From a virus (lineage: Duplodnaviria > Heunggongvirae > Uroviricota > Caudoviricetes), in IMG/VR virus record IMGVR_UViG_3300022932_000016, positions 19,906 through 83,905 of that record: a DNA stretch of 64,000 nucleotides; one strand, given 5' to 3'. A program made the translations under genes and the position numbers. The notes under the pieces were generated by a model that did no database searches, was not told the DNA's origin, and was given only the letters and a program-made list of their open reading frames with translations. Each line of letters begins with the position of its first letter. Position 1 is the stretch's first letter. Below, piece after piece: positions 22,427-57,464 of the stretch.

Positions 22427-22427
22427 T

Positions 22428-23633
22428 ATGAAAATCTATGACGACCAGGACAAGCTAGACGCTCTCGTGAAATCCTTGAAGCGTCATGGCTATACTTCAT
22501 ACGGTGTTGCCCTACAGCAACTCGGTACTCGATGGACAGATGAAAAAGGTGTAATCGGCTTCACGAACCCACAAGGTATCGTGATTAACGGCACCCTTAA
22601 TATCAACGAGCAATCTTTGGTAGCCCGTCACGAAGTATTGCACACGCTTCTACGGCACCTCGATGACACAATCTGGGGTGACGGACGTGACGACCACGAA
22701 GTTCGTAATATGGCAGGCGACCTTGAGTTGTCCCACTACTACGATGATGTAGACAGCCGACACTTTAATATCGGTGGTCCTCTTGCAGGTGGTTTGAACG
22801 TACAACGTCGAGCCCACGGCAAGTACTTCGGTATGGACTGTGTCGAGATTTACGATGACCTAATCAAGAACGGCAAAGCTAAAGGCAAGCCGCTTGGTGA
22901 TTGTATTCAAGGCGATGGGCCAAAGGGTAAAAGTAGTGGGGCGAGCGCAGGCGACCTCGATGACAAGGGTAAGAAGGAAACATCTGTTTCGCCTAGTCCC
23001 CAGCCAGCGAAGATGTCTGACGAATTGAAGAAGGAACTCTTGAACAAGATTAAGGTAGAGCGACAGGAACGCTACGAGCAATCAACCATTGAACGTGGTC
23101 TGCGTGCGGAAGTAGATATTGACCCAGAGGTCGAGTTGTTCTACTCCCTTAACCGTTATTTCATCAAAGAGCAACAGCTTAGCCGAAACAAGAGTTATGC
23201 ACGACCGAACAAGAAATATCAAGGCGCAATCGTCAAGAAGGGCCGACGTAAGACTCGCAGCCCAGGTAAGACGTTAGTGGTGTATATCGACCGTTCGGGA
23301 AGTATGAGCGACGAAAAGACTGGTAAAGCGGAAGCAATTCTTGCAAACACAGTCAAAAGGCTCAACCACGTTACCGTTGTAACTAAATACTTTAGCGATG
23401 AAGTATCAATGGACGGTAATATCGGTGGTGGTACAAATTATTCTGCCGTTATTGACGACATAATGATTAACAAGTACCGAGATGTGGCAATCGTAACCGA
23501 CAACGACAACGATGGACGTGCGAATATCGCAGACGTTGATGCCGTGTGGATCGTATCGGTTGAACCAGGATACCCAACGAGAATTGCTCAACGCTTTAAT
23601 GCGACAATGCTTGTGGAAACGGAGATTAGGTAA
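22428..23633 (+). CDS. VWA-domain protein with N-terminal HExxH putative metallopeptidase domain (DUF2201-like)
   Basis: ARHEVLHTLLRH HExxH motif. C-terminal MIDAS (VVYIDRSGSMSD...GGTNY). Adjacent to MoxR, a known pairing. Confidence 0.75.
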   Translation: MKIYDDQDKLDALVKSLKRHGYTSYGVALQQLGTRWTDEKGVIGFTNPQGIVINGTLNINEQSLVARHEVLHTLLRHLDDTIWGDGRDDHEVRNMAGDLELSHYYDDVDSRHFNIGGPLAGGLNVQRRAHGKYFGMDCVEIYDDLIKNGKAKGKPLGDCIQGDGPKGKSSGASAGDLDDKGKKETSVSPSPQPAKMSDELKKELLNKIKVERQERYEQSTIERGLRAEVDIDPEVELFYSLNRYFIKEQQLSRNKSYARPNKKYQGAIVKKGRRKTRSPGKTLVVYIDRSGSMSDEKTGKAEAILANTVKRLNHVTVVTKYFSDEVSMDGNIGGGTNYSAVIDDIMINKYRDVAIVTDNDNDGRANIADVDAVWIVSVEPGYPTRIAQRFNATMLVETEIR

Positions 23634-26563: not shown

Positions 26564-26836
26564 CGCTGGTACAAAGCCTGTGTTTGTTGGATTACTCTTC
26601 GCTGCTGCCTGAAGCCTTAAGCCTGCGACCGCCCCACACACTGCACGTTACGCTATGGTAATGACGTACCATCTCCATAAATCCACGATAAAATCGTATC
26701 CTCGAGTTAACAAAATACTTGACTTCCTATGCTGGATATGATTATTTAGGAGTAAATAGGCGTTGCGTTTTTCTCGGTTGTTTTTTTTCGTTGCAATTTT
26801 TTGACGATACCTTCGCATCAGAACTTAATCCACGAA

Positions 26837-26865
26837 TTGACGTACCCCTTGCCAAGCGGTATAAT
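26837..26865 (+). promoter_or_regulatory. sigma-70-type promoter TTGACG-17-TATAAT
   Basis: Near-consensus hexamers with 17-nt spacing. The spacer contains TTGCCAAGCGG. ATG at 26873 is only 8 nt downstream, so the mRNA may be leaderless. Confidence 0.55.
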
Positions 26866-26872
26866 AGTAGTA

Positions 26873-27037
26873 ATGTTTGACTATGCAATACAGCTACCCA
26901 CGATTGACAAGGTACTCGGTTGCCCTTGGGGAAGAGCGGTTTGGCGGCATGGGCACAAAACTGGTCGTTTCGTTCGACACGGCAGGTTGCAATACGTACA
27001 AAGGCATAACAAAAAATACTTGGTGGTAATGGGCTAA
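26873..27037 (+). CDS. small protein (54 aa), paralogous N-terminus with the next ORF
   Basis: MFDYAIQLPTIDKVL versus downstream MIDYIIELPPIDEML. Starts directly after the promoter. Confidence 0.3.
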   Translation: MFDYAIQLPTIDKVLGCPWGRAVWRHGHKTGRFVRHGRLQYVQRHNKKYLVVMG

Positions 27038-27891: not shown

Positions 27892-27921
27892 CTCCTGTGA
27901 TGTCACAGGGGCTTTATTTAT
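27892..27921 (+). terminator. rho-independent terminator between convergent genes
   Basis: CTCCTGTGA-TG-TCACAGGGG stem followed by GCTTTATTTAT. Confidence 0.65.
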
Positions 27922-29420
27922 GCACCGATGACTTCGATTTGTGAACCTGTGATCGCTGCTGCGTCAGCCAGCTTGACCGACTTAGTACCGAAAGTAGTAT
28001 CGACAGGGACCCCGAGAAGCACATCGTCTTCGTCTGGTATAGCCATCGTACCTGTTTTATTGTCAGAATCGTATACCACGCCATCACGAACGTCAGCTGG
28101 TGAGAGATTTGAGTCTGCATTTGTCAGGTTATCCCCGTCTGGTATAAACGTACCGTCTGGACTGAAAGTACCGTACCTGTAGATGATAGTCGCACCGTCT
28201 ACGATTTGAATTGGGCCGTAGTAGAACCGTGTTTTAGAGTTTTCGTTGATGTATGAGGTCACACCAGAAGCCCCAACGCGTAATGCACCAGTATTAGCTG
28301 TGAATGCCCAGTCGAGAACGGGTCGGGTTGCCATGTTGTCGACATAGATATTACCCTTGATCCATACAGTAGTTGCGGTTGAGCGAGAAATTGCTGTACC
28401 ACCGATACCAGTTGCGCTTTCGTAGTTAAGGCTAGGACCTGATCGAACGTCTCCATTGATAGTGAGAAGCTGACCATTTTGCATATCTATAGCTGGACCA
28501 CCTGATTGTGAGCTGTTACCGATACCACCTGTGACGTTGCCGTTGACGACTACAGTACAACCTGTAGCTGTAGAAGCAATCTGCATAGCGTAAGTGCTAG
28601 GGTTTTGACCACCTAATAGGTTACCGTTAAAAACAACCGATTTAGCTCGAATAATCATAATGACGATTGAACCACCGTTTGAGTTGGTAGTAGGGGACGC
28701 GTCACCAGTAAGTATAACGTCACTATTTGCGTTATCAATGTAGACAAGTACACCAGATTGGCCGCTTTGCTTAACCAGACTGGCTGTTACTGAGATGGTA
28801 TTTGCGAGCGTACCGATTACCGCGACAACACCTCCAGGGTTAGGTACTGAGTTTGTTGCGTGGAATGCAAGCGCGGTAACTGTGAGGTCGCCTGAAGATG
28901 TGTTGTAGATACCTGATGTCGTTTGCGTGTTTGTGATAGTACCGCTTACGTTAATAGTAACGTCTACGTCACTCGCATTGAGAACAAGTGAGGTTGCGAC
29001 CCCCGTTGCGCTTGAGTCACCAGTCCAGTTAGTCCCCGTCATTGATAATGTACCTGTCGCACCCGATAATAGGGACACGAACGCTGCTGCGGTTCCTGTG
29101 ATTGCACCAGCTGCGATAAGACCCGCATTGATTACTGAACCAGTCGCGGAGTAAGACGCATCTAGTTCGATTAGAGAAGATGTCGCTGTCAGAGCAAGGA
29201 TTAGCGAAACACTGCAGGTCACTGTGCGAGCCGTGCTACCCGTGAGAACAAACTTACCGCTACCAGTGTTTGAGAGCGACTGTACGGCTACGTTTTGGTC
29301 GATGGTAACTGTGTGACCAGTCAACGCTTGGGCAACGTCGTTTACGCCAGGGAGTACACCACCGCTCCATGTTGCGGGGTTAGACCAGTTTCCAGATGCT
29401 TGAGATGCGATATTTGCCAT
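27918..29420 (-). CDS. beta-helix tail fiber/tailspike-like protein, paralog 2
   Basis: N-terminus has a passenger/autotransporter-associated beta-strand-repeat-like motif (G-W-x-P-x-TW-GG-V-PG-x-D-V). Ser/Thr/Gly/Asn-rich repeats. Homologous to 29427-30827. Confidence 0.65.
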   Translation of the reverse strand: MANIASQASGNWSNPATWSGGVLPGVNDVAQALTGHTVTIDQNVAVQSLSNTGSGKFVLTGSTARTVTCSVSLILALTATSSLIELDASYSATGSVINAGLIAAGAITGTAAAFVSLLSGATGTLSMTGTNWTGDSSATGVATSLVLNASDVDVTINVSGTITNTQTTSGIYNTSSGDLTVTALAFHATNSVPNPGGVVAVIGTLANTISVTASLVKQSGQSGVLVYIDNANSDVILTGDASPTTNSNGGSIVIMIIRAKSVVFNGNLLGGQNPSTYAMQIASTATGCTVVVNGNVTGGIGNSSQSGGPAIDMQNGQLLTINGDVRSGPSLNYESATGIGGTAISRSTATTVWIKGNIYVDNMATRPVLDWAFTANTGALRVGASGVTSYINENSKTRFYYGPIQIVDGATIIYRYGTFSPDGTFIPDGDNLTNADSNLSPADVRDGVVYDSDNKTGTMAIPDEDDVLLGVPVDTTFGTKSVKLADAAAITGSQIEVIGA

Positions 29421-29426
29421 TGATTA

Positions 29427-30827
29427 TTACTCGCTTAGGGTGGCGATTTGACCACCAGTTATATTTGCTAGGTCGGGGTTGTCGAGAAGTGCTGTACCTA
29501 CAGTAGCATCAACGTCGACTCCTGCTCTTACTGAATCGGGACTAGGCACATTGAGGGTTCCTTCTATCCCCGTTGGGTAAGCAGTACCCTTACGAGTGTT
29601 ACTCACTGACGGACCTTGACCCTCAGCTTTGAGGTTGACCGCTGCACCAGTCCATGCTGGGTAGGCTGACGCTGATTGGTAGCCGATAATAAAGTAATTA
29701 CCGTCAGTGCGGACGAGCTTACCTGCAACCGCAGCCGCTGAACTGTATGCACCGATAGTATATGTGTTACCCGTGTGTGGTTCCCCCACTATAACAGGCG
29801 TATAACCATTGTTAATCGCGGTTTGAGTTCCATTTGATATGATATCCCCGTAGACCCGAATGTAGGCAGTAGATGCAGAAGCAGGAGTAATAAGCGGTGT
29901 AGTTGTCACACCTGTGGTTGCAGATGAGATAACGTCACCGTGTATTTCAGCGGTAAGAGGGCCGTTAAGTGCGAAACCAGGGCCTGTATATGTGTTGAGA
30001 ATATCACCGTAGACGTAAACGTATGCACGGTTGTTAAATGAAGCGAGGTTACCTAAGTTTGTCACTTTCATATCCCCGTTAACGATCAGCGTAGGTATAG
30101 GCATTGGCTGGTTGGTCACCGCTTGAGATGACGCTGTCGTCATTGTGAGAATGTAGGTGTTAGCAAGGTTTGGGGTCACCATATCACCGTTCCATGTAAA
30201 CGTACCAATAAATGCAGTGCCCATAGCAAACGCTGCGGGGGTTTGTAGCATAGTCCATGTAGTGTTGCTGGTCACGTTGAGTGTGAAGTAACTTGCAAGA
30301 CCCGCGTTATAAACGACCTGGCTGTTGCTTAGTGTCATATAGTTGAGGTTGAGCGTAATACCAGTACTAGCGGTTGCGGCTACGTTAATAAGAGCAGGCT
30401 CGTTACCTGAGTTGTTTGTGTCACCGTTGAATGTGTTAACGCTAATAGTGACCGTACCTGAAGCACCTGCGATGAAGCCAATGACTGAAAGCATTGATGA
30501 GCCAGTGTGAGCACCGATAGTTACCGTATCAGCTGTAATAACAGACCCAGTCGCAGAATATAAAGCCGTGAACTCGATAAAGTCAGAGTTTGTTGAACCG
30601 ACTGCCGTTCGCAGTAGTGTTGTGACGGTGAGGGTTCTTGGGGTACTACCTGTAATCTGTAGCACGGCAGCATTGGCGTTTTGAGTGAGGTTTGTAACCG
30701 TCACGTTTGTGTCGAGTGTAACAACGTGGTTGATGTTCACAGTATCAGCGGAGCCTGGAACTACACCACCCGTCCATGTAGACGGTGATGACCAAGGACC
30801 TGCTGCACCTGAAGTAATTGTAGCCAT
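29427..30827 (-). CDS. beta-helix tail fiber/tailspike-like protein, paralog 1
   Basis: MATITSGAAGPWSSPSTWTGGVVPGSADTVNI... aligns with the N-terminus of 27918-29420. Shared C-terminal G..VD.T.GT......A.ITG.QI motif. Confidence 0.65.
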   Translation of the reverse strand: MATITSGAAGPWSSPSTWTGGVVPGSADTVNINHVVTLDTNVTVTNLTQNANAAVLQITGSTPRTLTVTTLLRTAVGSTNSDFIEFTALYSATGSVITADTVTIGAHTGSSMLSVIGFIAGASGTVTISVNTFNGDTNNSGNEPALINVAATASTGITLNLNYMTLSNSQVVYNAGLASYFTLNVTSNTTWTMLQTPAAFAMGTAFIGTFTWNGDMVTPNLANTYILTMTTASSQAVTNQPMPIPTLIVNGDMKVTNLGNLASFNNRAYVYVYGDILNTYTGPGFALNGPLTAEIHGDVISSATTGVTTTPLITPASASTAYIRVYGDIISNGTQTAINNGYTPVIVGEPHTGNTYTIGAYSSAAAVAGKLVRTDGNYFIIGYQSASAYPAWTGAAVNLKAEGQGPSVSNTRKGTAYPTGIEGTLNVPSPDSVRAGVDVDATVGTALLDNPDLANITGGQIATLSE

Positions 30828-30839
30828 ATATCTATTCTA

Positions 30840-33800
30840 CTACGAGTAGGTCGCAGTAGCTCTGTTGTCCCATGAGTCGATGGCTGTCATTACCACGACT
30901 GGTGAAGTTAATGTTAATCGAGTGAGTGACCAACCACTTGTGGCTTCAGAAGTCGCAGAAGGTGCTGAACCCATGTAATCGTAGATACCAGATTGAGCGT
31001 GACGAATCTCACCTAATCCACCACCACCGCCCCCACCTGCTGAAGGAGCCCAGCGCAAACCATTTGTTGCGGTTGAGTCAGCGGTTAGAACGTAAGCGTC
31101 TGCACCGATTGGTAGAGGGACGGAGTTACCGACTGGGTTACCAACAACCACGTCACCCTTTGCGGTTGTAACCGCGCCACCAGCAACACCCGTGGCACCT
31201 ACTGGACCAGTATTACCAGTAGAACCGACTAGACCGTTTGGACCAGTCGCACCGATTGGACCAGTAGCACCAGGATCACCCTGCACACCTTGCACACCAG
31301 TGAAACCACGTAGACCTGAAGCACCCGATGGGCCAGTAGCCCCAGTTGGACCCGTTACGCCCGCACCAGTTGCACCCTGTGGCCCAGTAGCACCACCAGG
31401 AGAACCAGCAACACCAGTCGCACCTGCAGGGCCAGTCGCACCATTTGTACCAGCGACCCCTGTTGCACCACGTGGACCAGTTGCACCCACTGGGCCTTCT
31501 GCTGAGTTAGGGACGTAGATGAATGTGTAATCGTTGTTTGAGAACGCTGTACCTGACACTGGGGTAATATCTAATAGATACCAACCAGATTGAGGTACGA
31601 TGTCGTTGACTGCGATGACGTTCATTTGTGGTGAGCCCGCTGTTCGGTGCATGTATAGGTAACCCTTTGGAGATACCGTAGATGAATCAATCAATGTAAA
31701 TAGAGCAGAGCGGTCTTGACTAGCAGCATCAAGCGTGTCCATACGTAGCTTCGTAATTGAAGCGAACGCGGCATTGTCAGATGTGAACTTTCCTGTAGTA
31801 GGGTCAGCGTCTATAGCGGTGTCACCTGTGTATGAGTATGTGAACCCAGCAACCGCACCAGTCGCACCAGTTGGGCCAGTGTAACCTAATGCACCAAGAC
31901 CACCAGATACACCCGTAGCACCGACTGGACCAGTCGCACCTGTTATACCAGTAGCACCTGTTGAACCAGAACCAGTGGCGCCTTGTGGGCCAGTAAATCC
32001 TCGAACACCCGTTTCACCCTGTGGACCTGTCGCACCACCTGGAGTACCAGGAGTACCTGGCGTACCAGAAGCACCAGTCGCACCAATCAATAGAGCAGGA
32101 CCTAGGTCGCTCCAGTCAGAACCCGTCCAGACCCATGCGTGACCAGTATCGTTTGTAACGAAGATTTCACCGAGATTTGGTGTAGAAGGTAGAGCCGCGA
32201 AGTTTGCGACAGTACCCTTAATAATAAGACCAGGACCGATAGGACCAGTTGCCCCTGTTCGACCGATAGGACCAGTCGCACCTGTAGTACCCGCACCTGT
32301 TGAACCCGCAGGACCAGAAGGACCTGTTGGCCCAAGCACGCTACCTGTTGATTGCCAGAGTGAACCGTCCCAGATGTATAGGTCACCGTTAACGAGCCAT
32401 GCGTCACCAACTACGTTACCAGTAGAAGGCAGAGATTCAACATCAGGTTTTGACCCCTTGACTTCGATACCAACACCCGATGGACCAGTTGGACCCATTG
32501 GCCCTGTTTGACCATTTACACCGTTAGACCCTGTAGGACCTTGAATACCTGTTGCGCCCGTTCGTCCTAGAGGACCAGTTGCACCAGAAGCACCCGCGAT
32601 TCCAGCGAGACCCATATCTTGCCAAGCTGAACCGCTCCATACCCAGTTGTGCCCGTCATCTGCTGTGGTGTAGATGTCACCCGCAGTTGGGAGAGCAGGA
32701 AGTGAAGCGTAGTTAGCTACTACACCCTTGACACGTAGACCGATACCTGTCGCACCAGTGTTACCTAGGTTACCAGTAGCACCTTGTACACCCGTAAAGC
32801 CACGCACACCAGTAAGACCTTGAGGCCCTGTTGGACCAGTTGTACCTTGGTTACCTGTTGCACCCGTGAAACCGACTGTGATAGGACCGATATTGTCCCA
32901 TGTCGCTCCATTCCACAACCATGCTTCATTGTTAGGTTCGATTACAACGTAAATGTCACCTTGTTCGACACCCTCTAGACCGTAAAGGTCAAACTCCTCA
33001 ACGACAGTACCCTTAATTCGGGCACCTTCACCACGAGGACCAGTTGCCCCCGTGTTACCAGTTGCACCAGTGTTACCAGTTTGACCCTGAACACCCGTGA
33101 AACCTCTAACCCCAGTCCAACCTTGAGGACCAGTGTTACCAGACGCTCCTGTTGGACCCATAATGCGACCAACATTTTCCCAGCTGTCACCGTCCCACAT
33201 CCAGAGTTCACCATTAACCATCCAGCCATCACCGATTGTATTACCAGTAGAAGGAAGGAACTCAACACCTGTTTTTGTACCAAGAATGCGAACACCGACA
33301 CCTGTTGCCCCAGTTACACCTTGAGGACCTGTGAAACCTCGTACACCAGTGTTACCAGTTTGGCCGATTGCTCCAGTTACACCCGCACCAGTTGCACCTT
33401 GAGGACCAGTTGGGCCAACCATAGGACCGATGTCCATCCAAGAAGAACCGTTCCATGACCAACCGTGCCCCGTGTCAGCTGTAATGTAAACGTCACCCGT
33501 TGTGCCCGAGCCAGGAAGAGCTGCTGAGTTAGCAACAACACCCTTAATCGTGATACCCACACCAGTTGCCCCTGTCCCACCGATAGCACCCGTAGGACCA
33601 GATGGGCCAGTAGGACCGCTGAACCCGATGTCACCTTGCGGACCAGTAGGACCCGCGACACCAGTTGAACCACGACTGAAAGCTAAGAATGCGCCCGTAC
33701 CACCAGTACCACCATTCAATACCCATAACTCATAGTTTGAAGCACCAGTAGGCCCAGTTGTACCTTGGGGACCTGTAGCACCAGAAGGACCAGCAGGACC

Positions 33801-35501
33801 AGATTCACCTTGAACACCTTGTGGACCTGTAGCACCTGTCGTACCAGCTCCAGTTGCACCCGTGACTCCAGTGAAGCCGCGTACACCTGTTGCACCTGTA
33901 TAACCACGAACACCCGCAGGGCCAGTTGCACCTGTTTGACCTTGAGGACCTGTCGCACCAGTTCGCCCAGAACCAGTAGCACCGCTACCACCGACAGGGC
34001 CAGATGGACCTTCAGGGGCGACTGACACAATGTAGTCGTCCATTGAGATACCCTTGTAATAAATAACGTCATCGTTACCGATTTTGAATAGAGGGATTGA
34101 TCGTTCTAGGGTGAAGAAATAAGACTTAGTTTCGAGCTTGTCAGTCATCTTCACTTCGATTTGGTATGTGTTAGCTTCTGCGAATGTAGTTTCACCGTCA
34201 GCAAAGGTTGTAGCCGTGAAGTCAGGTACGGTTACGTTACCAGAAGTGTCGCTACTATTTGTAACATCGTCCCAAGAGCCCCAATCACCTGCAGTGGTTA
34301 GGTTACGAGAGCGGTATGAAACACCAGTGGTAGCATTTACCGCGTTCTTAGGTGTGCCAGAAATGGTTAGTGGTGAGAACCGACCACCGATTTGCATTTG
34401 TACTGCGTCAAAGTCGCCAGCACCTGAGTCAATACGTTCAGCATTAATGTTAAGAACTGGAGAGTTGTATGGTAGAAGATTTGCTGTCTTGCTTGCAAGG
34501 GTCATCTTGCCGCGTGAGTCTTTTGCGCTTACTTGAAAGTTGAAGTTATCACCGTAATTAGCAACGTCTAGAGAAACGTCGATGTCTTCATCGTCATAAG
34601 GAATGTTTACCGAGTTCCAAGGAGTAACAGCGAGGTACGAATCCATTGTTGCGTATTTATTCGCTGTGGCTGCTTGATCTGGGTATGTGATCGTAACGTG
34701 CGGTTCAGAGTAGCTCTGGACAAGGTATTGATCGTCACCTGTAATCGTAACAGTGTCGGGGTTGTTGTCGTAGTAGCCGAATGTAGTAAATGTAGGTTCG
34801 CCACCTACGATAGAAACAGTTCGGTCGATTGTTTGGTCAGAACCAAGACCGTTACCGATGTAGTAGCGGACAGTCGTAGAAGCGACATTCTTCATCGCAT
34901 TTCGAATTGCGTTTCGCTCAGCGGTGCTTAGTGTCCAGTTATAAGTTTGACCACCGTTCGCACCGAAGTTTCGCCATGCGTATTGAGTACCACCAGTAAT
35001 GCTAGGTAGCATGAAGAACCCAGTAACGGTGTTTCCTGCTGGGTTTGCGTAAGATACGCTAGGTGTACCCTCATCGTTGAAGTCAGAAGCACCCTGAATG
35101 TTAGGGTTACGAGGGATATTATCAAGACCGAAGTTACCACCGACATCTCGTGGGCCACCTGAGTTATTGTAGAGTGACCAACCAGAGCTGAAGTTGCCAC
35201 CGATGTAGATACCTTTTGTACCGTTGTCATCGTGTTGCACCCACGCTGAGAAAGAGTGAATGTTGTGCGTACCTGCGCCACGGGTTGTAGAACCACGAGA
35301 GAAGCTACCAACCTGACCGTTGATACTGATAGAACCAGACTCTGTGGCAGCAATTGAGGCACCACTAGGGATAATTAACTGAAGGGTGGCGTCAACACGT
35401 GAGCGGTTGTTTGGTATGTCAACGTATGAGCTCCAGACAATACGAAGCCCCCAGTTCGCGAAAGAACCTGAACCGTTACGTTGTGTTGATGAACCTGCCA
35501 T
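30840..35501 (-). CDS. tail fiber / anti-receptor protein with extensive collagen-like (G-X-Y, Thr-rich) repeats, 1553 aa
   Basis: N-terminal ~480-aa globular domain. Long GxT/GPTGP triple-helix repeats interrupted 6 times by a ~48-aa W-rich module. Conserved fiber-like C-terminus (KGDVVVGNPVGNSVPLPIGADAYVLTADSTATNGLRWAP). Confidence 0.85.
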   Translation of the reverse strand: MAGSSTQRNGSGSFANWGLRIVWSSYVDIPNNRSRVDATLQLIIPSGASIAATESGSISINGQVGSFSRGSTTRGAGTHNIHSFSAWVQHDDNGTKGIYIGGNFSSGWSLYNNSGGPRDVGGNFGLDNIPRNPNIQGASDFNDEGTPSVSYANPAGNTVTGFFMLPSITGGTQYAWRNFGANGGQTYNWTLSTAERNAIRNAMKNVASTTVRYYIGNGLGSDQTIDRTVSIVGGEPTFTTFGYYDNNPDTVTITGDDQYLVQSYSEPHVTITYPDQAATANKYATMDSYLAVTPWNSVNIPYDDEDIDVSLDVANYGDNFNFQVSAKDSRGKMTLASKTANLLPYNSPVLNINAERIDSGAGDFDAVQMQIGGRFSPLTISGTPKNAVNATTGVSYRSRNLTTAGDWGSWDDVTNSSDTSGNVTVPDFTATTFADGETTFAEANTYQIEVKMTDKLETKSYFFTLERSIPLFKIGNDDVIYYKGISMDDYIVSVAPEGPSGPVGGSGATGSGRTGATGPQGQTGATGPAGVRGYTGATGVRGFTGVTGATGAGTTGATGPQGVQGESGPAGPSGATGPQGTTGPTGASNYELWVLNGGTGGTGAFLAFSRGSTGVAGPTGPQGDIGFSGPTGPSGPTGAIGGTGATGVGITIKGVVANSAALPGSGTTGDVYITADTGHGWSWNGSSWMDIGPMVGPTGPQGATGAGVTGAIGQTGNTGVRGFTGPQGVTGATGVGVRILGTKTGVEFLPSTGNTIGDGWMVNGELWMWDGDSWENVGRIMGPTGASGNTGPQGWTGVRGFTGVQGQTGNTGATGNTGATGPRGEGARIKGTVVEEFDLYGLEGVEQGDIYVVIEPNNEAWLWNGATWDNIGPITVGFTGATGNQGTTGPTGPQGLTGVRGFTGVQGATGNLGNTGATGIGLRVKGVVANYASLPALPTAGDIYTTADDGHNWVWSGSAWQDMGLAGIAGASGATGPLGRTGATGIQGPTGSNGVNGQTGPMGPTGPSGVGIEVKGSKPDVESLPSTGNVVGDAWLVNGDLYIWDGSLWQSTGSVLGPTGPSGPAGSTGAGTTGATGPIGRTGATGPIGPGLIIKGTVANFAALPSTPNLGEIFVTNDTGHAWVWTGSDWSDLGPALLIGATGASGTPGTPGTPGGATGPQGETGVRGFTGPQGATGSGSTGATGITGATGPVGATGVSGGLGALGYTGPTGATGAVAGFTYSYTGDTAIDADPTTGKFTSDNAAFASITKLRMDTLDAASQDRSALFTLIDSSTVSPKGYLYMHRTAGSPQMNVIAVNDIVPQSGWYLLDITPVSGTAFSNNDYTFIYVPNSAEGPVGATGPRGATGVAGTNGATGPAGATGVAGSPGGATGPQGATGAGVTGPTGATGPSGASGLRGFTGVQGVQGDPGATGPIGATGPNGLVGSTGNTGPVGATGVAGGAVTTAKGDVVVGNPVGNSVPLPIGADAYVLTADSTATNGLRWAPSAGGGGGGGLGEIRHAQSGIYDYMGSAPSATSEATSGWSLTRLTLTSPVVVMTAIDSWDNRATATYS

Positions 35502-40933: not shown

Positions 40934-41368
40934 TTAGCTCTCTACTTCCTCGTCTTCATCTTGTTGTTTGTATTTCGCGTTGAACTCGAGTGTTTGACGT
41001 TCGCGAAGTCCTTCGTAACCAAGCTCTTCAAGGTCAGCAAGTGATTGCTTTGCACCCGCGAGTTGCTTTTCGAAGATGTCGATACGTGACTGGATGAACT
41101 TCTTCTCGAGTAGGTCACGGTCAATCTTGTTTTCTAGCTCTTTAGCGACCGTTTCTAGGTCTTCTAGTGAGGTCAATACAGAGGTAATTGGCGCGAATGT
41201 ACCGTCGAGGTTCTGAATGTTCAAAGAGTACTTGACTACACCTGGATCAAGTGAAGATACGCTCAGTTGAACGTGATAATCGGTTTCATTGTTGCGAATG
41301 CTCTTGCGGATTACGCGCTGCACCTTTTTTTCAATCGCAAGCAATCGTGATTCTGTTGTCTTTGCCAT
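40934..41368 (-). CDS. hypothetical coiled-coil protein
   Basis: GGGAGA RBS. 144-aa ORF. Confidence 0.5.
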   Translation of the reverse strand: MAKTTESRLLAIEKKVQRVIRKSIRNNETDYHVQLSVSSLDPGVVKYSLNIQNLDGTFAPITSVLTSLEDLETVAKELENKIDRDLLEKKFIQSRIDIFEKQLAGAKQSLADLEELGYEGLRERQTLEFNAKYKQQDEDEEVES

Positions 41369-41518
41369 TTATTTTCTCCCTAATTTTCGTTTACGTCGTA
41401 GCTCAGCTTTCGGCTGCATAGCCCAACGCGCTTTCGTGTACTTTGGATCTGACGGCTTAGTCGCTCGTCGTTGTTCACGGTTTTGTGGGCTGCTGATGTG
41501 TATTTTATCTTCTACCAT
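41369..41518 (-). CDS. small basic protein (49 aa)
   Basis: Read from sequence: MVEDKIHISSPQNREQRRATKPSDPKYTKARWAMQPKAELRRKRKLGRK. Its stop abuts the downstream ATG. Confidence 0.25.
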   Translation of the reverse strand: MVEDKIHISSPQNREQRRATKPSDPKYTKARWAMQPKAELRRKRKLGRK

Positions 41519-41858
41519 ATTACTATTATACAGGACAATGAAAAAAGTAGCATTGGCAAAGGACGCCCTGTATGATATGAATTGGGACGAGAACCAGGAA
41601 GAGGTGCAAACCCTCGACGCTATATTCTTATCGACTTCTGATTTGCAGTTTACTGCTTGGACAGAATGATATAGCAGGTTATCGCTGTAACCCTTTGACG
41701 TGACAGGTCATTGTACTACTTATAGGGGGTGGTTACACTGATGAAACTCCGACGGCATGGCTCCGAGAAAGATTCAGCTTACCTATCCTTCAAGACGTTT
41801 AAGTTCTTGGGGGGTAGGGGGGGCTGTTTCACCACGCTCTAACAATCACCAAAAAAGA

Positions 41859-42374
41859 TTAGGGTTTGCTAACGTGGTAGTAAGCACAGACTTCACCAAC
41901 AATAGAAGTGAAATCGTTATCAGCCAAGAAATCGTCCATCTCTTCTACGTCCCAATGGTCAACGTGTGTCTCAAAATCATTACCTTCGGCTCCTGCGTGC
42001 TGGTCGTGATGAACTACAGGGAAGCAAAGCAGCAAAGTTTTTGAATGCTCAATCAATTTTTTAATGAGGGTTTTCGCGTCTTCTTTTTCCATGTGCTCAA
42101 TCATATCTGCCGCAATGATAAGATCGTAGTCTTTATACTCGTGAGTACGCGCGTCTTCGACAATTACTTCATCGTATTTATTTTCAAGGTTGAACATCTC
42201 AACGTACGGCTCGAAAACCTCGAGCGCGGTCCAGTGCTGGGAGGGCATACGACCCATTAGCGAATATGTACCAACACCCGCACCAATGTCGAGCACGGTT
42301 TTGAAATCATCTTCATGGTCTAGAAGCCACTGTCTAATAATATGTTTGTTCTCGAAATCTGAAACGCCTGCCAT
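41859..42374 (-). CDS. class I SAM-dependent methyltransferase
   Basis: Motif I (VLDIGAGVGTYS) and motif post-II (DLIIAADMIEHM). Confidence 0.75.
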   Translation of the reverse strand: MAGVSDFENKHIIRQWLLDHEDDFKTVLDIGAGVGTYSLMGRMPSQHWTALEVFEPYVEMFNLENKYDEVIVEDARTHEYKDYDLIIAADMIEHMEKEDAKTLIKKLIEHSKTLLLCFPVVHHDQHAGAEGNDFETHVDHWDVEEMDDFLADNDFTSIVGEVCAYYHVSKP

Positions 42375-42386
42375 TATGACTCTTTT

Positions 42387-43781
42387 CTATTTATGTTTGA
42401 ATCGTTCGGTGCCATCTGACTTGAACGACTTGAATTGATTTGTGACACCCGCAGTGATAACCCTACCAGCGTAGAAGGTTCGCAGCAAAAAGCCATAAAT
42501 TGGCATTTCGACTGTGATTTTCTTACCGCTATCGAAGTATCGGGTGTAAATACCCCTACAAATGTCGATAATGTCTTCACGAGAGCCACCGACTACACCG
42601 CAGTTGAGTATGTGTTGGCGGTTTCGCGCGGTGAAAGTGCGATATGGTTCGACGGTTGAGTGCTGTCGCAACCATCTACTTTGTGAAGGCACACCCTGCT
42701 CGATACCAGAATAAATCTTTCCAGGTTGCATATCTCTGAACGGGTTATTGACCACCTCGACATCGGTTGAATCTACGCAGAAAACATTATCAATTTCGGG
42801 GTGCTGTTTCAGGTAGCGGTAAATGCTAAGCCACCGCTGAAAGTACGGGTTTAATACGCTTTCAACTTTTATGTGGGTGACCTGCTCGGTATCGGGTTCG
42901 TCGAAGCAATCGTGCAGAAGCACTAGCTTTTCGCCCTGCAATGAATCAATGAGCGGCTTCATCGCGCTATAGTCTGCTGACCAGTTCACCTTGCGTTGAG
43001 GGTCTTCGTGCGAAGTAAAGTAAGAAGCGATAATTACGTTATTCATTCCTGCACTATCAGACTTCTTAACCTCTCGGTAATCAATGTACTCGCTGGATTT
43101 TAGCGATTCGCGGTATAATTTCGCGTTGTTCGCGAGACCAGTTCGACGTGCGTGCTGTTCGATTGAACTTGAAACCTCTTGGTATTCGTCCATGCTGTAA
43201 ATAAGGTTCGAACTATCGGGCACGTCCATTGCTCTGAACGTAGTAAGGCCAGCGTTGAAGATGCGATTAGTCCATGCGGTGTGTTCAAACATAGAGATAC
43301 CGAATCGCGGGTCTAAGCCACCCACCTTTTCAAGCACTACCTTGTTAGCATAAATCATGCAACCGCGAGTATGCGAGTAAGCCACGATTGTGCTGTCGCG
43401 ATATATCTCAAGCATATCGGTTAGTTGTTTTGCTGGGTTATTTGCGAACTCCCGAAACTGGTACATAAGGTGGGGCTCTTCGCTATCGACGTACGGTTTC
43501 CACCAGTCTTTCACCTTTGGGTATGTGTCGTCATCGAACAGGAAGAAGTCAGTCGCACCGCGTTCTTCGAGCAATTCGAGACATTTGTTTTTGACCCTTG
43601 CGACACCACCCCGTTCAGGGAAAACGTAATCAGCTTCTTTGGGCGCATTTTCATCGTGGTCTGATACAACGACAAGCACGGCACCTTTTGGCAGATACTT
43701 TTTAATTTCTTTGTATGTTTTCTTGAAAACATCTGGTCTTTTGTAGGTTGATATTGCAACCCCGACTACAGGTTCATTCAT
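42387..43781 (-). CDS. glycosyltransferase (GT-A/GT2-like N-terminal domain plus additional C-terminal domain)
   Basis: VVGVAISTYKRPD...FLFDDDTYP (DxD). Confidence 0.65.
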   Translation of the reverse strand: MNEPVVGVAISTYKRPDVFKKTYKEIKKYLPKGAVLVVVSDHDENAPKEADYVFPERGGVARVKNKCLELLEERGATDFFLFDDDTYPKVKDWWKPYVDSEEPHLMYQFREFANNPAKQLTDMLEIYRDSTIVAYSHTRGCMIYANKVVLEKVGGLDPRFGISMFEHTAWTNRIFNAGLTTFRAMDVPDSSNLIYSMDEYQEVSSSIEQHARRTGLANNAKLYRESLKSSEYIDYREVKKSDSAGMNNVIIASYFTSHEDPQRKVNWSADYSAMKPLIDSLQGEKLVLLHDCFDEPDTEQVTHIKVESVLNPYFQRWLSIYRYLKQHPEIDNVFCVDSTDVEVVNNPFRDMQPGKIYSGIEQGVPSQSRWLRQHSTVEPYRTFTARNRQHILNCGVVGGSREDIIDICRGIYTRYFDSGKKITVEMPIYGFLLRTFYAGRVITAGVTNQFKSFKSDGTERFKHK

Positions 43782-44437
43782 AGTAATTGATCCAAGAACT
43801 TCTTATATTTTTCGAACTTTACGTTACTTGTTGATAGGTAATCAGTAACGTCTTCGATTTTAATGTTTTTAACATCATCATACGGCACTGAGCTTTGCCC
43901 GTCAAGCGGGTTATAGAAGTTGAAGTACAGGCTTTTAATTTGCAGATCAAAATCCGTGTCTACGATGTTGTTGGTGACGTAGAGTGCTTTTTGCTTCTCG
44001 ATAACAACAGGGATATGGAGCTCGTAGTTTGTGTCATTCATATCGTTCTCCGTGAGATACCTACCCGTTTTCATTAACGAGGTTTTGTACGGGTCGTTCG
44101 CTCTGCTTTTTATTTTGTCAGCTAACGTCGGGTACTTTCGGTCGTGAACTACCTGCGGGTTGAACGGTGCGGTCAGATAGACATCGTCCATCATAAGAAT
44201 GAACTGGTCGCTCAACTCTGGCATTCGAACTGCGAGTGCAAACTTGAGCATTTGGTCAGCGAACTTACCCGCTTGAGAGCGGTGATGAACGTGGATAATT
44301 TCACCAGCGAGCCGTGCTGGGGGTTTATCCCCGATGATGTATACGGTGCCTAAGCTGGGGTAGAACTTCTTTAACAAGCGAACCGAATAAACCAATTCAT
44401 CGCTGTTCGTATGCTTGTAGAGATAGACCGCGTCCAT
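43778..44437 (-). CDS. Stealth CR2-like sugar-phosphate transferase domain protein
   Basis: NSDELVYSVRLLKKFYPSLGTVYIIGDKPP resembles the Stealth conserved region 2 signature. LMMDDVY acidic motif. Confidence 0.45.
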   Translation of the reverse strand: MDAVYLYKHTNSDELVYSVRLLKKFYPSLGTVYIIGDKPPARLAGEIIHVHHRSQAGKFADQMLKFALAVRMPELSDQFILMMDDVYLTAPFNPQVVHDRKYPTLADKIKSRANDPYKTSLMKTGRYLTENDMNDTNYELHIPVVIEKQKALYVTNNIVDTDFDLQIKSLYFNFYNPLDGQSSVPYDDVKNIKIEDVTDYLSTSNVKFEKYKKFLDQLL

Positions 44438-44438
44438 G

Positions 44439-44696
44439 TTATTTCTTCTTAGCGGGCTCGACTACATCTTCTTTAGTGATGATGTACTTGTACTTAACGA
44501 AGTATTTGATACCGTCACCATCGAGAACAGTGTAGCCACGCAACGTGTGGTGAGTGATTTGCACCTTGTAAATGTATGGTGGTATGCGGTCACCAGCTAA
44601 GAAAAGAGCGAGACCAGTCTTTTGTTGCATGACTGATGAGCGAACGAGAATCGTATCATTTTCTTTATAGAAGTATTTTTCAAATGGATTTTTCAT
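44439..44696 (-). CDS. hypothetical protein
   Basis: ORF, coupled. Confidence 0.4.
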   Translation of the reverse strand: MKNPFEKYFYKENDTILVRSSVMQQKTGLALFLAGDRIPPYIYKVQITHHTLRGYTVLDGDGIKYFVKYKYIITKEDVVEPAKKK

Positions 44697-45061
44697 AGCA
44701 AGTTTTTTAGCTCCTCTGCAATGTGGTTACGTCGAGATTGCGACACGTTGATGAGTCGCCACGATGAGTCGATTAGTTTATTAAGACGTGCGATTGTAGC
44801 TCGGTTCGCTGCGCTTTCAAGTCGCACTTTCTGGTTGACCTTTGTGTCTGACCAGTTGTTTTTTGAAAGCTCTCTTACCTTCTCGGCTTCGAACAGAATC
44901 ATTTCTGACTCGATGTCAGCGACAATCTCTTCTGCGGCTGAAACGTACTGTGCAAGTTTGTACATATTTTCGCTTAGTACTACAGGGGCAATGAGCGCAT
45001 CAGGAGATCGCAATTCCTCGCGAGTTTCTTTGATACCTTTGATTACTTCCTCTAGTGTCAT
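44693..45061 (-). CDS. hypothetical protein
   Basis: ORF. Confidence 0.45.
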   Translation of the reverse strand: MTLEEVIKGIKETREELRSPDALIAPVVLSENMYKLAQYVSAAEEIVADIESEMILFEAEKVRELSKNNWSDTKVNQKVRLESAANRATIARLNKLIDSSWRLINVSQSRRNHIAEELKNLL

Positions 45062-45107
45062 CTGCTGTTAATTATACAGGAATACCGATTGTTTTACCAT
45101 AGAGCCA

Positions 45108-45542
45108 ATGATAAACTGTAGAAAAGCAAAGGTTAAAAACGTGGCAAAAGTACTATCAACTTCTAAGTGGAAAACCACTAGGCAAAAATGGGTAAAGAAA
45201 AACCCAGTGACCGAGTTCAGTGAAGAGGGCGACACAGGTTGGGTGTGTGGTTTTTGCGGTGAACCAGTCTGGAAGTACGAGTTATCGCTTGACCATATTC
45301 TAAGGGTGCAAGACTACCCAAAGTTGAAGTACGACCACCACAATCTACGGCCAATGCACCAGCGTTGCAACTCGAACCTCGACGCGATCTGGCGAACCGA
45401 AAAAGGTCGCACCACTTTCGTTAAGCGCAAGAGAGAAGAACGCTCTTACAAGATACGCTGTATCAATGAAACGATTGAGTGGTACGAACTTGCTATCAGT
45501 ACTGGTGCCATTCCATACACTGCCAGCAAAAATCTTCTGTGA
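45108..45542 (+). CDS. HNH endonuclease
   Basis: CGFCGEP...LSLDHILRV...HHNLRPMHQRCN. Confidence 0.65.
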   Translation: MINCRKAKVKNVAKVLSTSKWKTTRQKWVKKNPVTEFSEEGDTGWVCGFCGEPVWKYELSLDHILRVQDYPKLKYDHHNLRPMHQRCNSNLDAIWRTEKGRTTFVKRKREERSYKIRCINETIEWYELAISTGAIPYTASKNLL

Positions 45543-47824: not shown

Positions 47825-48406
47825 ATGGCACCACCTAAGACACCTTGGTACGCGACAAGTAAAGCAATCAGTATTTTTATCGGTCTAGGAGTAGCGTTCG
47901 TGCTACTTTGGATCATCGTCGGTTCACTCGCAGGGTACAACAACACTTACGTTAACAAGACTGAAACTGTAGCGACCGCAAAGTCAAACATCAGCAAAGA
48001 AGAACAACGACGTGTCGACCTATTCAATAACCTTGTAGACGCTGTACAGTCAGCTAAGACGTTCGAACAAGAAACACAGACGCAAATCGCGACTGCACGT
48101 TCACAAGCTAACGGTGGTAACGTAGAACAAGCACAGCTAACACTTCAAGCGGTTACAGAAGCATACCCAGAGATCAAATCGACAGAACTATATAAGCAAA
48201 CAATGCTAGAGTTTAGCGCGACCGAAAACCGTCTCGCACAATACCGCGAACAGTACAACAGCACGGTTCAAGACTACAACCAGTACGTTCAAGGGTTCCC
48301 AAACACTCTATTCTTGAGCATTCTTGGTAAAGACCTTACTCGCAAACCACTGCTTGACTACAACGTAAACAACGCAGAAGCTCGCGACCTTTTCGACAAG
48401 GAATAA
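47825..48406 (+). CDS. LemA family membrane protein
   Basis: N-terminal TM. RRVDLFNNLVDAV motif. C-terminal YNxxVQxYNQYVQGFPNTL. Confidence 0.7.
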   Translation: MAPPKTPWYATSKAISIFIGLGVAFVLLWIIVGSLAGYNNTYVNKTETVATAKSNISKEEQRRVDLFNNLVDAVQSAKTFEQETQTQIATARSQANGGNVEQAQLTLQAVTEAYPEIKSTELYKQTMLEFSATENRLAQYREQYNSTVQDYNQYVQGFPNTLFLSILGKDLTRKPLLDYNVNNAEARDLFDKE

Positions 48407-53896: not shown

Positions 53897-54811
53897 TTAT
53901 ACTTTCTTATGCTCTTCGCGAAGGATAAGCGGAGCGGTATTACGCCAGTTGATTCGGTGGTGAATGCGAAACGCGTTGTTGTCTTTCTCTTTACCTGCAC
54001 CTTTTATAGCTGAGGTATTGTAGAGAACCGAGAACTTTGCACCTGACGGGTGAGTAATAATTGTGTACGCGGTCTTGGTATATGTACCGAGCGATTTGTA
54101 CATCTCAGACATACCGCCAGTGTTTGTCTGGGTGGTCTTCTGATTAAGCGCGATGAATGCTGTCGTCAAGAACAAGAACCCTTGGTGTGCGAGCGACGTG
54201 TAGGTGTTTACGTCTTCATTGATACGACCGACAAACTTGAACCGTCTGTCTGTCGAGCAAATGAAGCTGTTCATCACTTTGCGTCTGAACTGATCGGAGA
54301 CCATTTTCGAACCACCGCCACCGATATAGTCACCAGACTGTGCCATACAGAGTGAGTACATCATGGGTACTGACTTGAAATAGTCGAGCATTACGTCAAA
54401 TACTTTATCGAGGGTCTGCTCTTCTGGCAGTGGTGAAAGCATAAGCGATGAGTATTCGATGTTTTCGTTCATTCGCCACCTGAAACTATCGTAGTCGTCA
54501 TCAAGCTGGATAAAGTACTTGTAACCGAGCTGTTCTGCAATGTCAAAGGACGCGTTGCGAGCGTAGAAAATCGTTCGTCGCTCACCTGAGTTGTCGACTT
54601 CATCGAAACGCTCTGCTATTTCATTTTTGCTAAAGGTTACGACCCTATCATCACCCCATATTCTGCGGTACTCGAGAAGGGTTGCATCTTCAGTATCCAC
54701 GACTAACTTCCAATCACCTGTGTACCCGTGACGCTTGAGCGTGTTTACGGTTACTTGGTTATTCGGTCGCCCGTGGGTCAGGATCAGTGCTACGAAGTTT
54801 TTGTTTTCCAT
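53897..54811 (-). CDS. hypothetical protein, possible nucleotide-sugar transferase-like (DxD)
   Basis: VALILTHGRPN...QLDDDYD. Weak call. Confidence 0.3.
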   Translation of the reverse strand: MENKNFVALILTHGRPNNQVTVNTLKRHGYTGDWKLVVDTEDATLLEYRRIWGDDRVVTFSKNEIAERFDEVDNSGERRTIFYARNASFDIAEQLGYKYFIQLDDDYDSFRWRMNENIEYSSLMLSPLPEEQTLDKVFDVMLDYFKSVPMMYSLCMAQSGDYIGGGGSKMVSDQFRRKVMNSFICSTDRRFKFVGRINEDVNTYTSLAHQGFLFLTTAFIALNQKTTQTNTGGMSEMYKSLGTYTKTAYTIITHPSGAKFSVLYNTSAIKGAGKEKDNNAFRIHHRINWRNTAPLILREEHKKV

Positions 54812-56648: not shown

Positions 56649-57464
56649 ATGGAATACGGTAGCAATAACAATTCTAACGTGAAAAAGTACATCAAGTGGG
56701 GTGTCTGGGGCTTTATCGGTCTTCTAGTTCTCATTACACTTACTGGTTCACTCGCGTCAATCGGTACAGGTAAAGTCGGTGTCGTTACGAGTTACGGTCG
56801 CGTTACTGGTCGTGAACTAACTGAGGGTCTTTCAATCAAAGCACCTTGGGGTATCAACAGTGTTACTGAATACGACACTAAGACACAAAAGGTTCAGTCT
56901 AACGCAACAGCGTCTACTAAAGACTTGCAAGACGTTAACGCGACTGTCGTACTTACATACGCGCTAAATCGCGGTAAGGTATCAGAAGTTCACCAGAACG
57001 TCGGCAAAGACTTCCAAGCAATCGAAATTGACCCGCAGGTTCAAGAAGCATTCAAAGCAGTATCAGCTAAATATACTGCAAGCGAACTAATCACTAACCG
57101 CGCAGAAGTAAAGCGTGACGTGGTAGATAACCTAAAAGATCGTGTTGAGAAAAATGGTCGCTACAACATTCAAGACGTAGCTATCACTGAGTTCAAGTTC
57201 AGTGAAGCATTCAATCAAGCTATCGAAGCAGTGCAAATCGCTAACCAGAAGGTCGCACAAGCTCGTCAGGAGCTCGAGACAACAAAGGTTGAAGCAGAGA
57301 AGCAAGTTGCAGAAGCAACCGCACAGGCAGAGTCTCAGCGTCTTCGTCAGCAAACACTCACACCAGAGATTTTGCAACAACAATGGATCGCTAAGTGGAA
57401 TGGTGTACTACCAACTACTGACGCAAGCGGTGGCAACGCACAGTTTTACATTCCAACTAAATAA
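56649..57464 (+). CDS. SPFH/band-7 (prohibitin/stomatin-like) domain membrane protein
   Basis: N-terminal TM. GKVGVVTSYGRVTGRELTEGLSIKAPWG... followed by a coiled-coil region. Confidence 0.75.
   Translation: MEYGSNNNSNVKKYIKWGVWGFIGLLVLITLTGSLASIGTGKVGVVTSYGRVTGRELTEGLSIKAPWGINSVTEYDTKTQKVQSNATASTKDLQDVNATVVLTYALNRGKVSEVHQNVGKDFQAIEIDPQVQEAFKAVSAKYTASELITNRAEVKRDVVDNLKDRVEKNGRYNIQDVAITEFKFSEAFNQAIEAVQIANQKVAQARQELETTKVEAEKQVAEATAQAESQRLRQQTLTPEILQQQWIAKWNGVLPTTDASGGNAQFYIPTK

Follow-up and report, generated by a model that had tools for sequence, protein, structure and literature searches.

We describe a cassette of three genes at positions 41859..44437 of a 64,000-nucleotide stretch (hereafter, the window) of the tailed phage record IMGVR_UViG_3300022932_000016. 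The products are a predicted sugar-phosphate transferase (ORF-A; ORF, open reading frame), a double glycosyltransferase (ORF-B) and a putative sugar methyltransferase (ORF-C). Comparison of related genomes makes it on balance probable that the cassette serves the O-glycosylation of virion proteins, with a C-terminal Asp-Ser or Glu-Ser ([D/E]S) as the acceptor; it is plausible that a Stealth-type sugar-phosphate step and a terminal O-methylation belong to the system. The evidence for the acceptor motif is new here, whereas virion glycosylation itself is already known in mycobacteriophages. A first-pass annotation of the cassette had proposed phage-encoded glycosylation and O-methylation of virion proteins, and in general terms this is still the best-supported reading, in view of the homology of ORF-B and the precedent for an O-methyltransferase; its choice of fibre and beta-helix proteins as acceptors is not favoured by the evidence.

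C-terminal serine of capsid, tail tube and connector proteins

Four proteins of the head and tail module of the window end in [D/E]S (Table 1). These are the major capsid protein, the tail tube protein, which was identified by its position, with the connector genes on one side and the chaperone and tape-measure genes on the other, a head-tail connector of 128 amino acids (aa) and a 143-aa protein in the position of a connector or tail terminator. In total, seven out of 97 ORFs of the window end in ES (binomial P ~2e-7) and two more in DS. Five of these nine proteins are not known to be structural, among them a TerS-like protein and a 144-aa coiled-coil protein encoded immediately downstream of the cassette. 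Since different codons are used for the ES endings, the signal lies at the protein level, and a nucleotide motif (ribosome-binding site or stop-codon context) was rejected as its source.

To describe the distribution of the motif we used a syntenic comparison of 49 distinct IMG/VR loci related to the capsid module of the window. A C-terminal serine was found in the major capsid protein of 48 out of 49 loci, in the tail tube protein of all 45, in the 128-aa connector of 37 out of 45 and in the 143-aa connector of 16 out of 44. The corresponding values for two neighbouring proteins, of 258 aa and 121 aa, were 0/45 and 2/45, and 12% of background ORFs end in serine. The class of the residue preceding the serine agrees between capsid and tube in 42 out of 45 loci and between capsid and connector in 34 out of 37 (permutation p <= 1e-5, a statistic that ignores shared ancestry), and the sets of endings within a genome read VS/VS/VS, ES/ES/ES or AS/GS/AS. 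Among database homologues, 115 out of 120 members of the capsid family end in serine, though the preceding residues vary, and the same is true of ~23 out of ~33 full-length tail tube representatives. A shared enzyme that reads the C-terminus would explain the pattern most simply.

It should be mentioned that the 761-aa capsid protein is a fusion, in which an N-terminal part of ~190 aa and a very acidic, Glu-rich region of ~200 aa precede the HK97-fold domain; many of its homologues are ~620-630 aa long and have the same layout.

In all phages examined that carry a member of the ORF-B family, both the capsid and the tail tube protein end in serine, and this holds across unrelated capsid types. 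The endings of the capsid and the major tail protein are VPDGS and YSDGS in Boomer, NKTGS and YSDGS in Rita, FSSGS and YASGS in mEp390 (with EEGS in the adaptor), GEATS and SEPSS in ENT47670, ETAS and GDGS in Sbash, GGGS and GGGS in Sparky, and ETAS and EDGS in Xula. In Che8, Boomer and Rita the proteins of the capsid and of the tail tube are the only structural ones that end in GS. In TM4 and L5, where no ORF-B-type gene was seen, the capsid and tail proteins end in A/V and A/G; the TM4 capsid is homologous to that of Boomer, yet it ends in APAA. Some loci with an ORF-B homologue deviate from the rule: four apparently structural proteins of L142 and two of L112 end in TT, and in L108 and L109 two proteins end in EES followed by one extra residue. 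These endings may be variant acceptor tags.

Enzymes of the cassette and turnover of the gene island

The three ORFs lie on the minus strand, are co-directional and exactly span the cassette. ORF-A shares 4 nt with ORF-B, a gap of 12 nt follows between ORF-B and ORF-C, and the ORF upstream of ORF-A stops 1 nt short of it; the packing is therefore operon-like. Scans for promoters and terminators around the cassette gave scores no better than those of shuffled sequence. No membrane segments were predicted in ORF-A, ORF-B or ORF-C.

On the evidence of its structural model, ORF-A is best described as a minimal Stealth-fold enzyme. Its sequence matches the Pfam model Stealth_CR2 (PF11380) with 31.8 bits (E 1.7e-7), below the gathering score of 39.4, and several of its homologues have a precomputed PF11380 match. 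The models of Stealth CR1, CR3 and CR4 gave no match to ORF-A at E <= 1; analogous motifs, MDAVY and ELHxP, were recognised in the ORF-A alignment by eye only. Conserved motifs of the protein are MDAVY, IGDxPP, NDD/MDD and ELHxP, and it also matches phrog_7999 (E 5e-22). The AlphaFold model has a predicted local distance difference test (pLDDT) score of 87.6 and a predicted template modelling (pTM) score of 0.86. In a Foldseek search of the PDB with this model, the top 13 matches were all Stealth enzymes (E 2e-8 to 7e-6, TM 0.54-0.61), including N-acetylglucosamine-1-phosphotransferase (GNPTAB; 9bgg/7dxi/7s6n) and CpsY of Mycobacterium tuberculosis (8j2n). On this structural evidence, ORF-A is predicted to transfer hexose-1-phosphate from a uridine diphosphate (UDP) sugar. 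With GNPTAB, CpsY and the Neisseria enzymes CsaB and CsxA it shares the predicted fold and the CR2-like region with NDD/MDD; in contrast to these characterised enzymes it is much smaller, its CR2 match is sub-threshold, and counterparts of CR1, CR3 and CR4 were not matched. The acceptors of known Stealth enzymes are polysaccharides or the mannose of N-glycans, whereas the acceptor proposed for ORF-A is a protein-linked glycan or serine.

ORF-B is a fusion of two GT-A glycosyltransferase domains. It matches the 'glycosyltransferase' family phrog_1579, to which Boomer gp102 and mEp390 gp54 belong, with E 4e-124 (residues 5-443 on profile positions 21-460 of 482), and its N-terminal domain matches phrog_2456 (E 2e-54). 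The model (pLDDT 91.9) consists of GT-A domains at residues 1-238 and 249-464, the C-terminal one with pLDDT >90, and the acidic motifs D83-x-D85 and D337-x-T339-D340 are invariant across 28 homologues. A PDB search with the ORF-B sequence returned nothing informative, so that a fold search was needed; its best matches were the double-GT-A enzymes PmHS2, K4CP, LH3 and Mimivirus R699. ORF-B resembles K4CP (Escherichia coli K4), PmHS2 (Pasteurella) and LH3 in having two tandem GT-A domains, each with an acidic metal/nucleotide-binding motif. It differs from them in sequence (~10% identity) and in that its domains are separate genes in close relatives, or the second one is replaced; there is no sign that ORF-B is a polymerase. 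Pfam gave no match of ORF-B to PF00535 at E <= 1, and many homologues have weak precomputed matches to PF00535 or PF02709. In tblastn searches ORF-B had more than 380 matches at 36-38% identity and 99-100% coverage in mycobacteriophages of Clusters F and I; further matches are carried by lambdoid enterobacterial phages (mEp390, HK542, ECP1, ENT39118, ENT47670 and others) and by Klebsiella jumbo phages. The relatives of ORF-B number at least 681 among database proteins and occur in at least 553 contigs of IMG/VR.

ORF-C scored above the Pfam gathering thresholds of Methyltransf_23 (31.6 vs 27), Methyltransf_25 (29.5 vs 27) and Methyltransf_11 (21.9 vs 21.2). It contains motif I (GxGxG) for binding of S-adenosylmethionine (SAM) in the form VLDIGAGVG, matches PDB entry 3dtn (E 4e-5) and weakly matches the O-antigen methyltransferase RfbT of Vibrio cholerae. 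The first-pass annotation had called the three products a Stealth-CR2-like sugar-phosphate transferase, a GT-A glycosyltransferase with an extra domain and a class I SAM methyltransferase. These assignments agree with our results: the first by its fold, with the CR2 score below the gathering threshold, the second by model and fold matches, in which the extra domain turns out to be another GT-A domain, and the third by three Pfam models together with the GxGxG motif.

Gene content next to ORF-A differs between relatives. In L020 and L022, whose ORF-A is 46% identical to that of the window, the gene is followed by a stand-alone gene for the ORF-B N-terminal domain (237 aa, 42-47% identical). Downstream of it L020 has a Methyltransf_21 gene, a gene for a 312-aa protein and a SAM-synthetase-like gene, and L022 has GT32 and NTP-transferase genes; in other homologues a polysaccharide pyruvyl transferase comes next. 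Differences were also found at a much shorter distance. The comparison with L004/L005 and L096 concerns genomes that are 95-99% identical: in contigs whose ORF-B and ORF-C are 99% identical to those of the window, ORF-A is only 77% identical, and in another near-identical genome the double glycosyltransferase is swapped for the stand-alone N-domain gene and a different 435-aa protein. On the sequence level this looks like local mosaicism or diversifying selection acting on the island. Because of these swaps among relatives, the Stealth gene and one GT-A domain are taken, on comparative grounds, as the conserved core, around which the tailoring genes turn over fast.

Relation to known virion glycosylation and alternative substrates

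To our knowledge, virion glycosylation has so far been shown experimentally only in mycobacteriophages. Freeman et al. 2023 are said to have located the glycans of Che8 on the C-termini of subunits of the capsid and the tail tube and to have seen little evidence of virion glycosylation in other phages. The systems closest to the window cassette are Che8 gp108-110, the Cluster O cassette (Corndog), which contains an O-methyltransferase and three glycosyltransferases, and the pairs gp101 and gp103 of Rita and gp102 and gp105 of Boomer. Capsid glycans are reported for Che8 and Rita in PMC11256854, and Che8 gp110 is called essential for capsid glycosylation in PMC12363180. Rita has only two glycosyltransferases. 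One of them, gp101, shares 92% identity with Boomer gp102 and 37.7% with ORF-B (E 5e-99), so that ORF-B is homologous to a glycosyltransferase of a phage with reportedly glycosylated virions; the other, gp103, is a GT25 enzyme 85% identical to Che8 gp110 (84-85% for Boomer gp105 and Rita gp103 together). Che8 itself has no BLAST-detectable homologue of ORF-B, and its gp108-110 are not BLAST-detectable relatives of ORF-A, ORF-B or ORF-C; it is through the gp110-type enzyme shared by Boomer and Rita that ORF-B is tied to Che8.

Che8 gp110 is also homologous to the small partner gene that lies beside the ORF-B homologue in mEp390, ENT47670 and FBKp24. In the Cronobacter phage ENT47670 this glycosyltransferase pair is located within the tail module, directly after the major tail gene, and in lambdoid phages it is at the end of the late operon. 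The small 'glucosyltransferase' partner of Boomer and mEp390 was considered as a possible relative of ORF-A and rejected, being a GT25 enzyme of a different family. We inspected 80 IMG/VR loci with an ORF-B homologue and found GT25 within ~2 kb in ~57 of them, an adjacent Stealth-like gene in six, both in none and neither in ~17. As the two were never found together, the Stealth enzyme looks, from this distribution, like an alternative partner to GT25 beside the ORF-B family.

Like the mycobacteriophage systems, the window cassette combines phage-encoded soluble GT-A glycosyltransferases with a sugar methyltransferase, and ORF-B is homologous over its full length to Rita gp101 and Boomer gp102 (~38% identity). 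The pairing of glycosyltransferases with an O-methyltransferase is likewise found in the experimentally studied cassettes of Che8, where GT2 and a TylF-like methyltransferase are fused in gp108, and of Cluster O. The differences concern several points. In the window a Stealth-fold sugar-phosphate transferase occupies the position of the gp110-type GT25 partner; ORF-C is a small, free-standing class I methyltransferase for which no relation to the TylF-like domain of gp108 was detected; [DE]S takes the place of GS as the motif; the genome has at least three further glycosyltransferases and an epimerase; and the host is not actinobacterial. The terminase has distant relatives in Bacteroidota phages, and the lysis genes are of Gram-positive appearance.

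From these comparisons we infer, as follows, what the cassette acts on, in which order its steps proceed, that a phosphodiester link is formed and what the methyl group does. The cassette would be a cytoplasmic, late-acting system that decorates the structural proteins of the phage with a short O-linked glycan, the acceptor being the hydroxyl of the serine that ends the capsid protein, the tail tube protein and one or two of the head-tail connectors. ORF-A and the N-terminal GT-A domain of ORF-B would form the conserved core, and one of them would start the glycan on serine. The hexose-1-phosphate added by ORF-A would create a phosphodiester link, either with the serine or inside the glycan; extension of the chain would fall to the C-terminal GT-A domain of ORF-B, and ORF-C would O-methylate a sugar, probably capping the chain. 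With tailoring genes swapped between close relatives, the structure of the glycan would diversify quickly.

Several observations weigh against glycosylation of the C-terminal serine, in addition to the shared ancestry that the co-variation statistics leave aside. The case for a virion glycan is comparative throughout. The cassette is surrounded by small early-looking genes and lies ~33 kb from the capsid gene. The gp110-type GT25 has no intact homologue in the window, so that the initiating step is without a characterised homologue here, and ORF-C showed no BLAST-detectable similarity to the methyltransferase domain of Che8 gp108. In HK97, FSSGS is the ending of the capsid protein gp5 and SEEGS that of the adaptor, the same tags as in the glycosyltransferase-bearing mEp390, and HK97 itself is not known to have such a glycosyltransferase; its tags may be a legacy of module exchange. 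The VS-type locus L031 has no glycosyltransferase within 10 kb on either side; another VS-type locus has GT47-like and GT-B genes just upstream of the terminase gene. In Fionnbharth, which has a Stealth-like gene upstream of the terminase gene, the capsid protein ends in GS and the tail protein is without a terminal serine. Other ES-type phages (L054, L056, L085, L029) showed no contig overlap with the Stealth-like matches, of which the best 80 of at least 366 were compared. The C-terminal serine motif could serve some other purpose or another enzyme.

It should be added that no Stealth-like or ORF-B-like genes were found within 10 kb of the capsid genes in 62 related loci, which is expected because the separation in the window is 33 kb. 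Within 3 kb of 77 Stealth-like genes no enrichment of Ser-terminal ORFs was seen; it is rare for structural genes to lie so near.

The modification of DNA, mentioned as an alternative in the first-pass annotation, has to be considered because the window encodes a true member of the TAGT family of GT-A glycosyltransferases (PF20691, 114 bits), immediately next to the genes of the small and large terminase. The enzyme may glycosylate DNA or else be another glycosyltransferase that acts on virion proteins, and for an orphan TAGT enzyme action on protein would be speculation. If a TAGT enzyme sugars a hydroxymethylated base, the cassette could extend and tailor the DNA-linked glycan with a sugar-phosphate, second and third sugars and an O-methyl group, as a protection against restriction. 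We regard this as quite unlikely. Phage clusters that build di- and trisaccharides on 5-hydroxymethylcytosine (5hmC) by means of several glycosyltransferases and a partner epimerase are documented (Pyle et al., bioRxiv 10.1101/2023.12.21.572611), and the phage of the window likewise has several glycosyltransferases, a NAD-dependent epimerase/dehydratase elsewhere in the genome, the TAGT gene and a variable repertoire of tailoring genes. In L020 the TAGT gene shares a co-directional block with the Stealth and GT-A genes, which favours a role in DNA modification and counts as a further point against the virion proteins as substrate. The N-terminal domain of ORF-B has a weak TAGT match (E 0.042), some homologues have precomputed PF20691 matches, and the fast turnover of tailoring genes would fit an arms race with restriction systems; the match of ORF-B to PF20691 (14.2 bits) is below the cut-off of 27.5.

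Unlike the 5hmC clusters, the window has no detected C5-methyltransferase or 5mYOX/TET enzyme, and its cassette is 9.5 kb from the TAGT gene, not adjacent to it. No C5-cytosine methyltransferase, TET/JBP dioxygenase or hydroxymethylase of deoxycytidine or deoxyuridine monophosphate (dCMP/dUMP) was found in the window ORFs of >=145 aa or in ~20 kb of the remaining genome, a scan that covered ~95% of the genome and left out ~1 kb and small ORFs; therefore no precursor base is predicted. The relatives of ORF-B, in contrast to the 5hmC clusters, associate with virion modules. The family is common in lambdoid coliphages and in mycobacteriophages of Clusters F and I, where it is partnered with the GT25 of capsid glycosylation, and these phages are not known to have other than ordinary DNA. 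DNA modification also leaves the C-terminal serine motif unexplained.

The same annotation had named the host surface as another alternative. The substrates might be lipid-linked precursors of teichoic acid or wall polysaccharide, which the enzymes would reach from the cytoplasmic side of the membrane, and their modification might block superinfection or the sticking of progeny to debris. The host is probably Gram-positive, as suggested by the endolysin in the window (Amidase_2 and G5) and a CHAP protein elsewhere in the genome. Such a system would resemble prophage TarP or Stealth capsule phosphotransferases; the GT-A phage enzymes do resemble TarP, characterised bacterial Stealth enzymes build or modify surface polysaccharides (CpsY 8j2n), and the weak RfbT match of ORF-C points the same way. 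The lack of membrane segments is not decisive, since soluble glycosyltransferases can act on membrane-bound precursors. However, the cassette has no flippase, polyprenyl-phosphate transferase, ligase or membrane protein, and no integrase or repressor was seen, which makes lysogenic conversion of the classical kind unlikely. In ENT47670 a GtrABC set for O-antigen conversion is present separately from the ORF-B/GT25 pair embedded in the tail module, and neither the C-terminal serine motif nor the link to Che8 gp110 would be explained. Thus, we consider action on the envelope unlikely; like the modification of DNA, it is weakened, here by the missing flippase and ligase and there by the missing precursor-base enzymes.

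As for the acceptors named in the first-pass annotation, the Thr-rich collagen-like fibre is present, with Thr at position Y in 78 out of 167 G-x-y triplets, and so are Ser/Thr-rich proteins, two of which contain 24% Ser/Thr. O-glycosylation of BclA-type collagen repeats is known from Bacillus, serine is the last residue of the fibre too, and the ORF-B model resembles LH3, a collagen-glycosylating enzyme, and Mimivirus R699, which we take to be another one. Nevertheless, glycans on internal Thr and Ser of the G-x-T fibre and of the Ser/Thr-rich beta-helix proteins seem very unlikely. The likeness to LH3 and R699 is that of a shared double-GT-A architecture at only ~10% identity, members of the ORF-B family occur in numerous phages that lack collagen-like fibres (mEp390, ENT47670, Cluster F), and no co-variation or co-occurrence ties the fibre to the cassette; the conserved, co-varying x-Ser marks the capsid, tube and connectors instead.

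For glycosylation of the C-terminal serine a wider formulation can be offered, although on the sequences compared we think it rather doubtful. Glycosylation of capsid, connector and tube proteins at this residue would be a widespread modular trait of tailed phages, whether their hosts are Gram-positive or Gram-negative. A specificity code for the initiating enzyme would lie in the residue that precedes the serine (G, V/I or E/D) or in a TT ending; this enzyme, in the window, would be a minimal Stealth initiator acting via sugar-1-phosphate. If so, this would be the first phosphoglycosylated phage virion. For the cassette as proposed further above, which we hold to be on balance probable, the consequence would be that an unrelated phage lineage of ~84 kb follows the same strategy as the mycobacteriophages with a different initiating chemistry, and the x-Ser rule would predict from sequence only which virion proteins are modified. 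Glycan shields alter the recognition of phages by antibodies and are relevant to phage therapy, and small soluble enzymes with short acceptor tags could serve site-specific protein glycoengineering.

Genome setting and other genes

The phage of the window is, by its sequence, novel and siphovirus-like. A nucleotide search with positions 41000..45500 gave no match among 50,697 phage records, which is the ground for regarding it as novel, and the large terminases of Cellulophaga and Flavobacterium phages share only ~29% identity with that of the window. Near-identical IMG/VR contigs are 84-86 kb long; therefore the window spans about 3/4 of the genome. The whole genome contains at least five glycosyltransferase genes. 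Two of these, one GT2-like and one GT17-like, follow the tape-measure gene immediately downstream and lie just outside the left end of the window, and the epimerase/dehydratase gene mentioned above also lies outside the window. Coordinates of all features are collected in Table 1.

Table 1. Features of the window and of the rest of the phage genome (NAD, nicotinamide adenine dinucleotide)
Feature	Position	Strand	Description
ORF-A	43778..44437	-	219 aa; predicted minimal Stealth-fold hexose-1-phosphate (sugar-phosphate) transferase
ORF-B	42387..43781	-	464 aa; fusion of two GT-A glycosyltransferase domains
ORF-B, N-terminal GT-A domain	43068..43781	-	residues 1-238; DxD motif D83/D85
ORF-B, C-terminal GT-A domain	42390..43037	-	residues 249-464; D337-x-T339-D340
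ORF-C	41859..42374	-	171 aa; class I SAM-dependent methyltransferase, predicted sugar O-methyltransferase
Major capsid protein	7410..9695	-	761 aa; ends ...SISSSES; predicted acceptor; homologues carry PF05065
Tail tube protein	4862..5362	-	166 aa; ends ...GGGDTTVDS; predicted acceptor
Head-tail connector protein	6175..6561	-	128 aa; ends ...LPDPEES; predicted acceptor
Connector or tail-terminator-position protein	5380..5811	-	143 aa; ends ...SAPNIES; possible acceptor
ES-ending ORFs	ends at 5380, 6175, 7410, 40934, 46044, 46368, 53307	-	
DS-ending ORFs	ends at 4862, 57485		
TAGT-family GT-A glycosyltransferase	53897..54811	-	304 aa; PF20691 E 1e-32, 114 bits; phrog_842 E 2.5e-60
Collagen-like tail fibre	30840..35501	-	1553 aa; matches collagen-like tail fibre PHROGs; ends ...ATATYS
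Two Ser/Thr-rich proteins	27918..30827		24% Ser/Thr
ORF with trace of gp110-type GT25	26801..27037; also given as 26756..27034	+	78 aa
PHD finger protein	11201..11659	+	152 aa
MoxR-like AAA_5 ATPase and DUF2201 VWA/metallopeptidase protein	21533..23633	+	auxiliary genes
LemA protein	47825..48406	+	auxiliary gene
SPFH/Band-7 protein	56649..57464	+	auxiliary gene
GT2-like and GT17-like glycosyltransferase pair; NAD-dependent sugar epimerase/dehydratase	L033:9317-10590 and L182:12437-13189		same genome, outside the window

The sole trace of a gp110-type enzyme in the window is a 34-bit match of a 78-aa ORF, which in a hidden Markov model search matched the C-terminal third of the Che8 gp110 GT25 family with E 1e-3. 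The ORF lies in an otherwise poorly coding stretch and could be a gene remnant or a chance match. Finally, a 152-aa protein of the window matches the PHD finger (PF00628) with 26.4 bits against a threshold of 24; PHD fingers are a mainly eukaryotic type of zinc finger and hence unusual in a phage.

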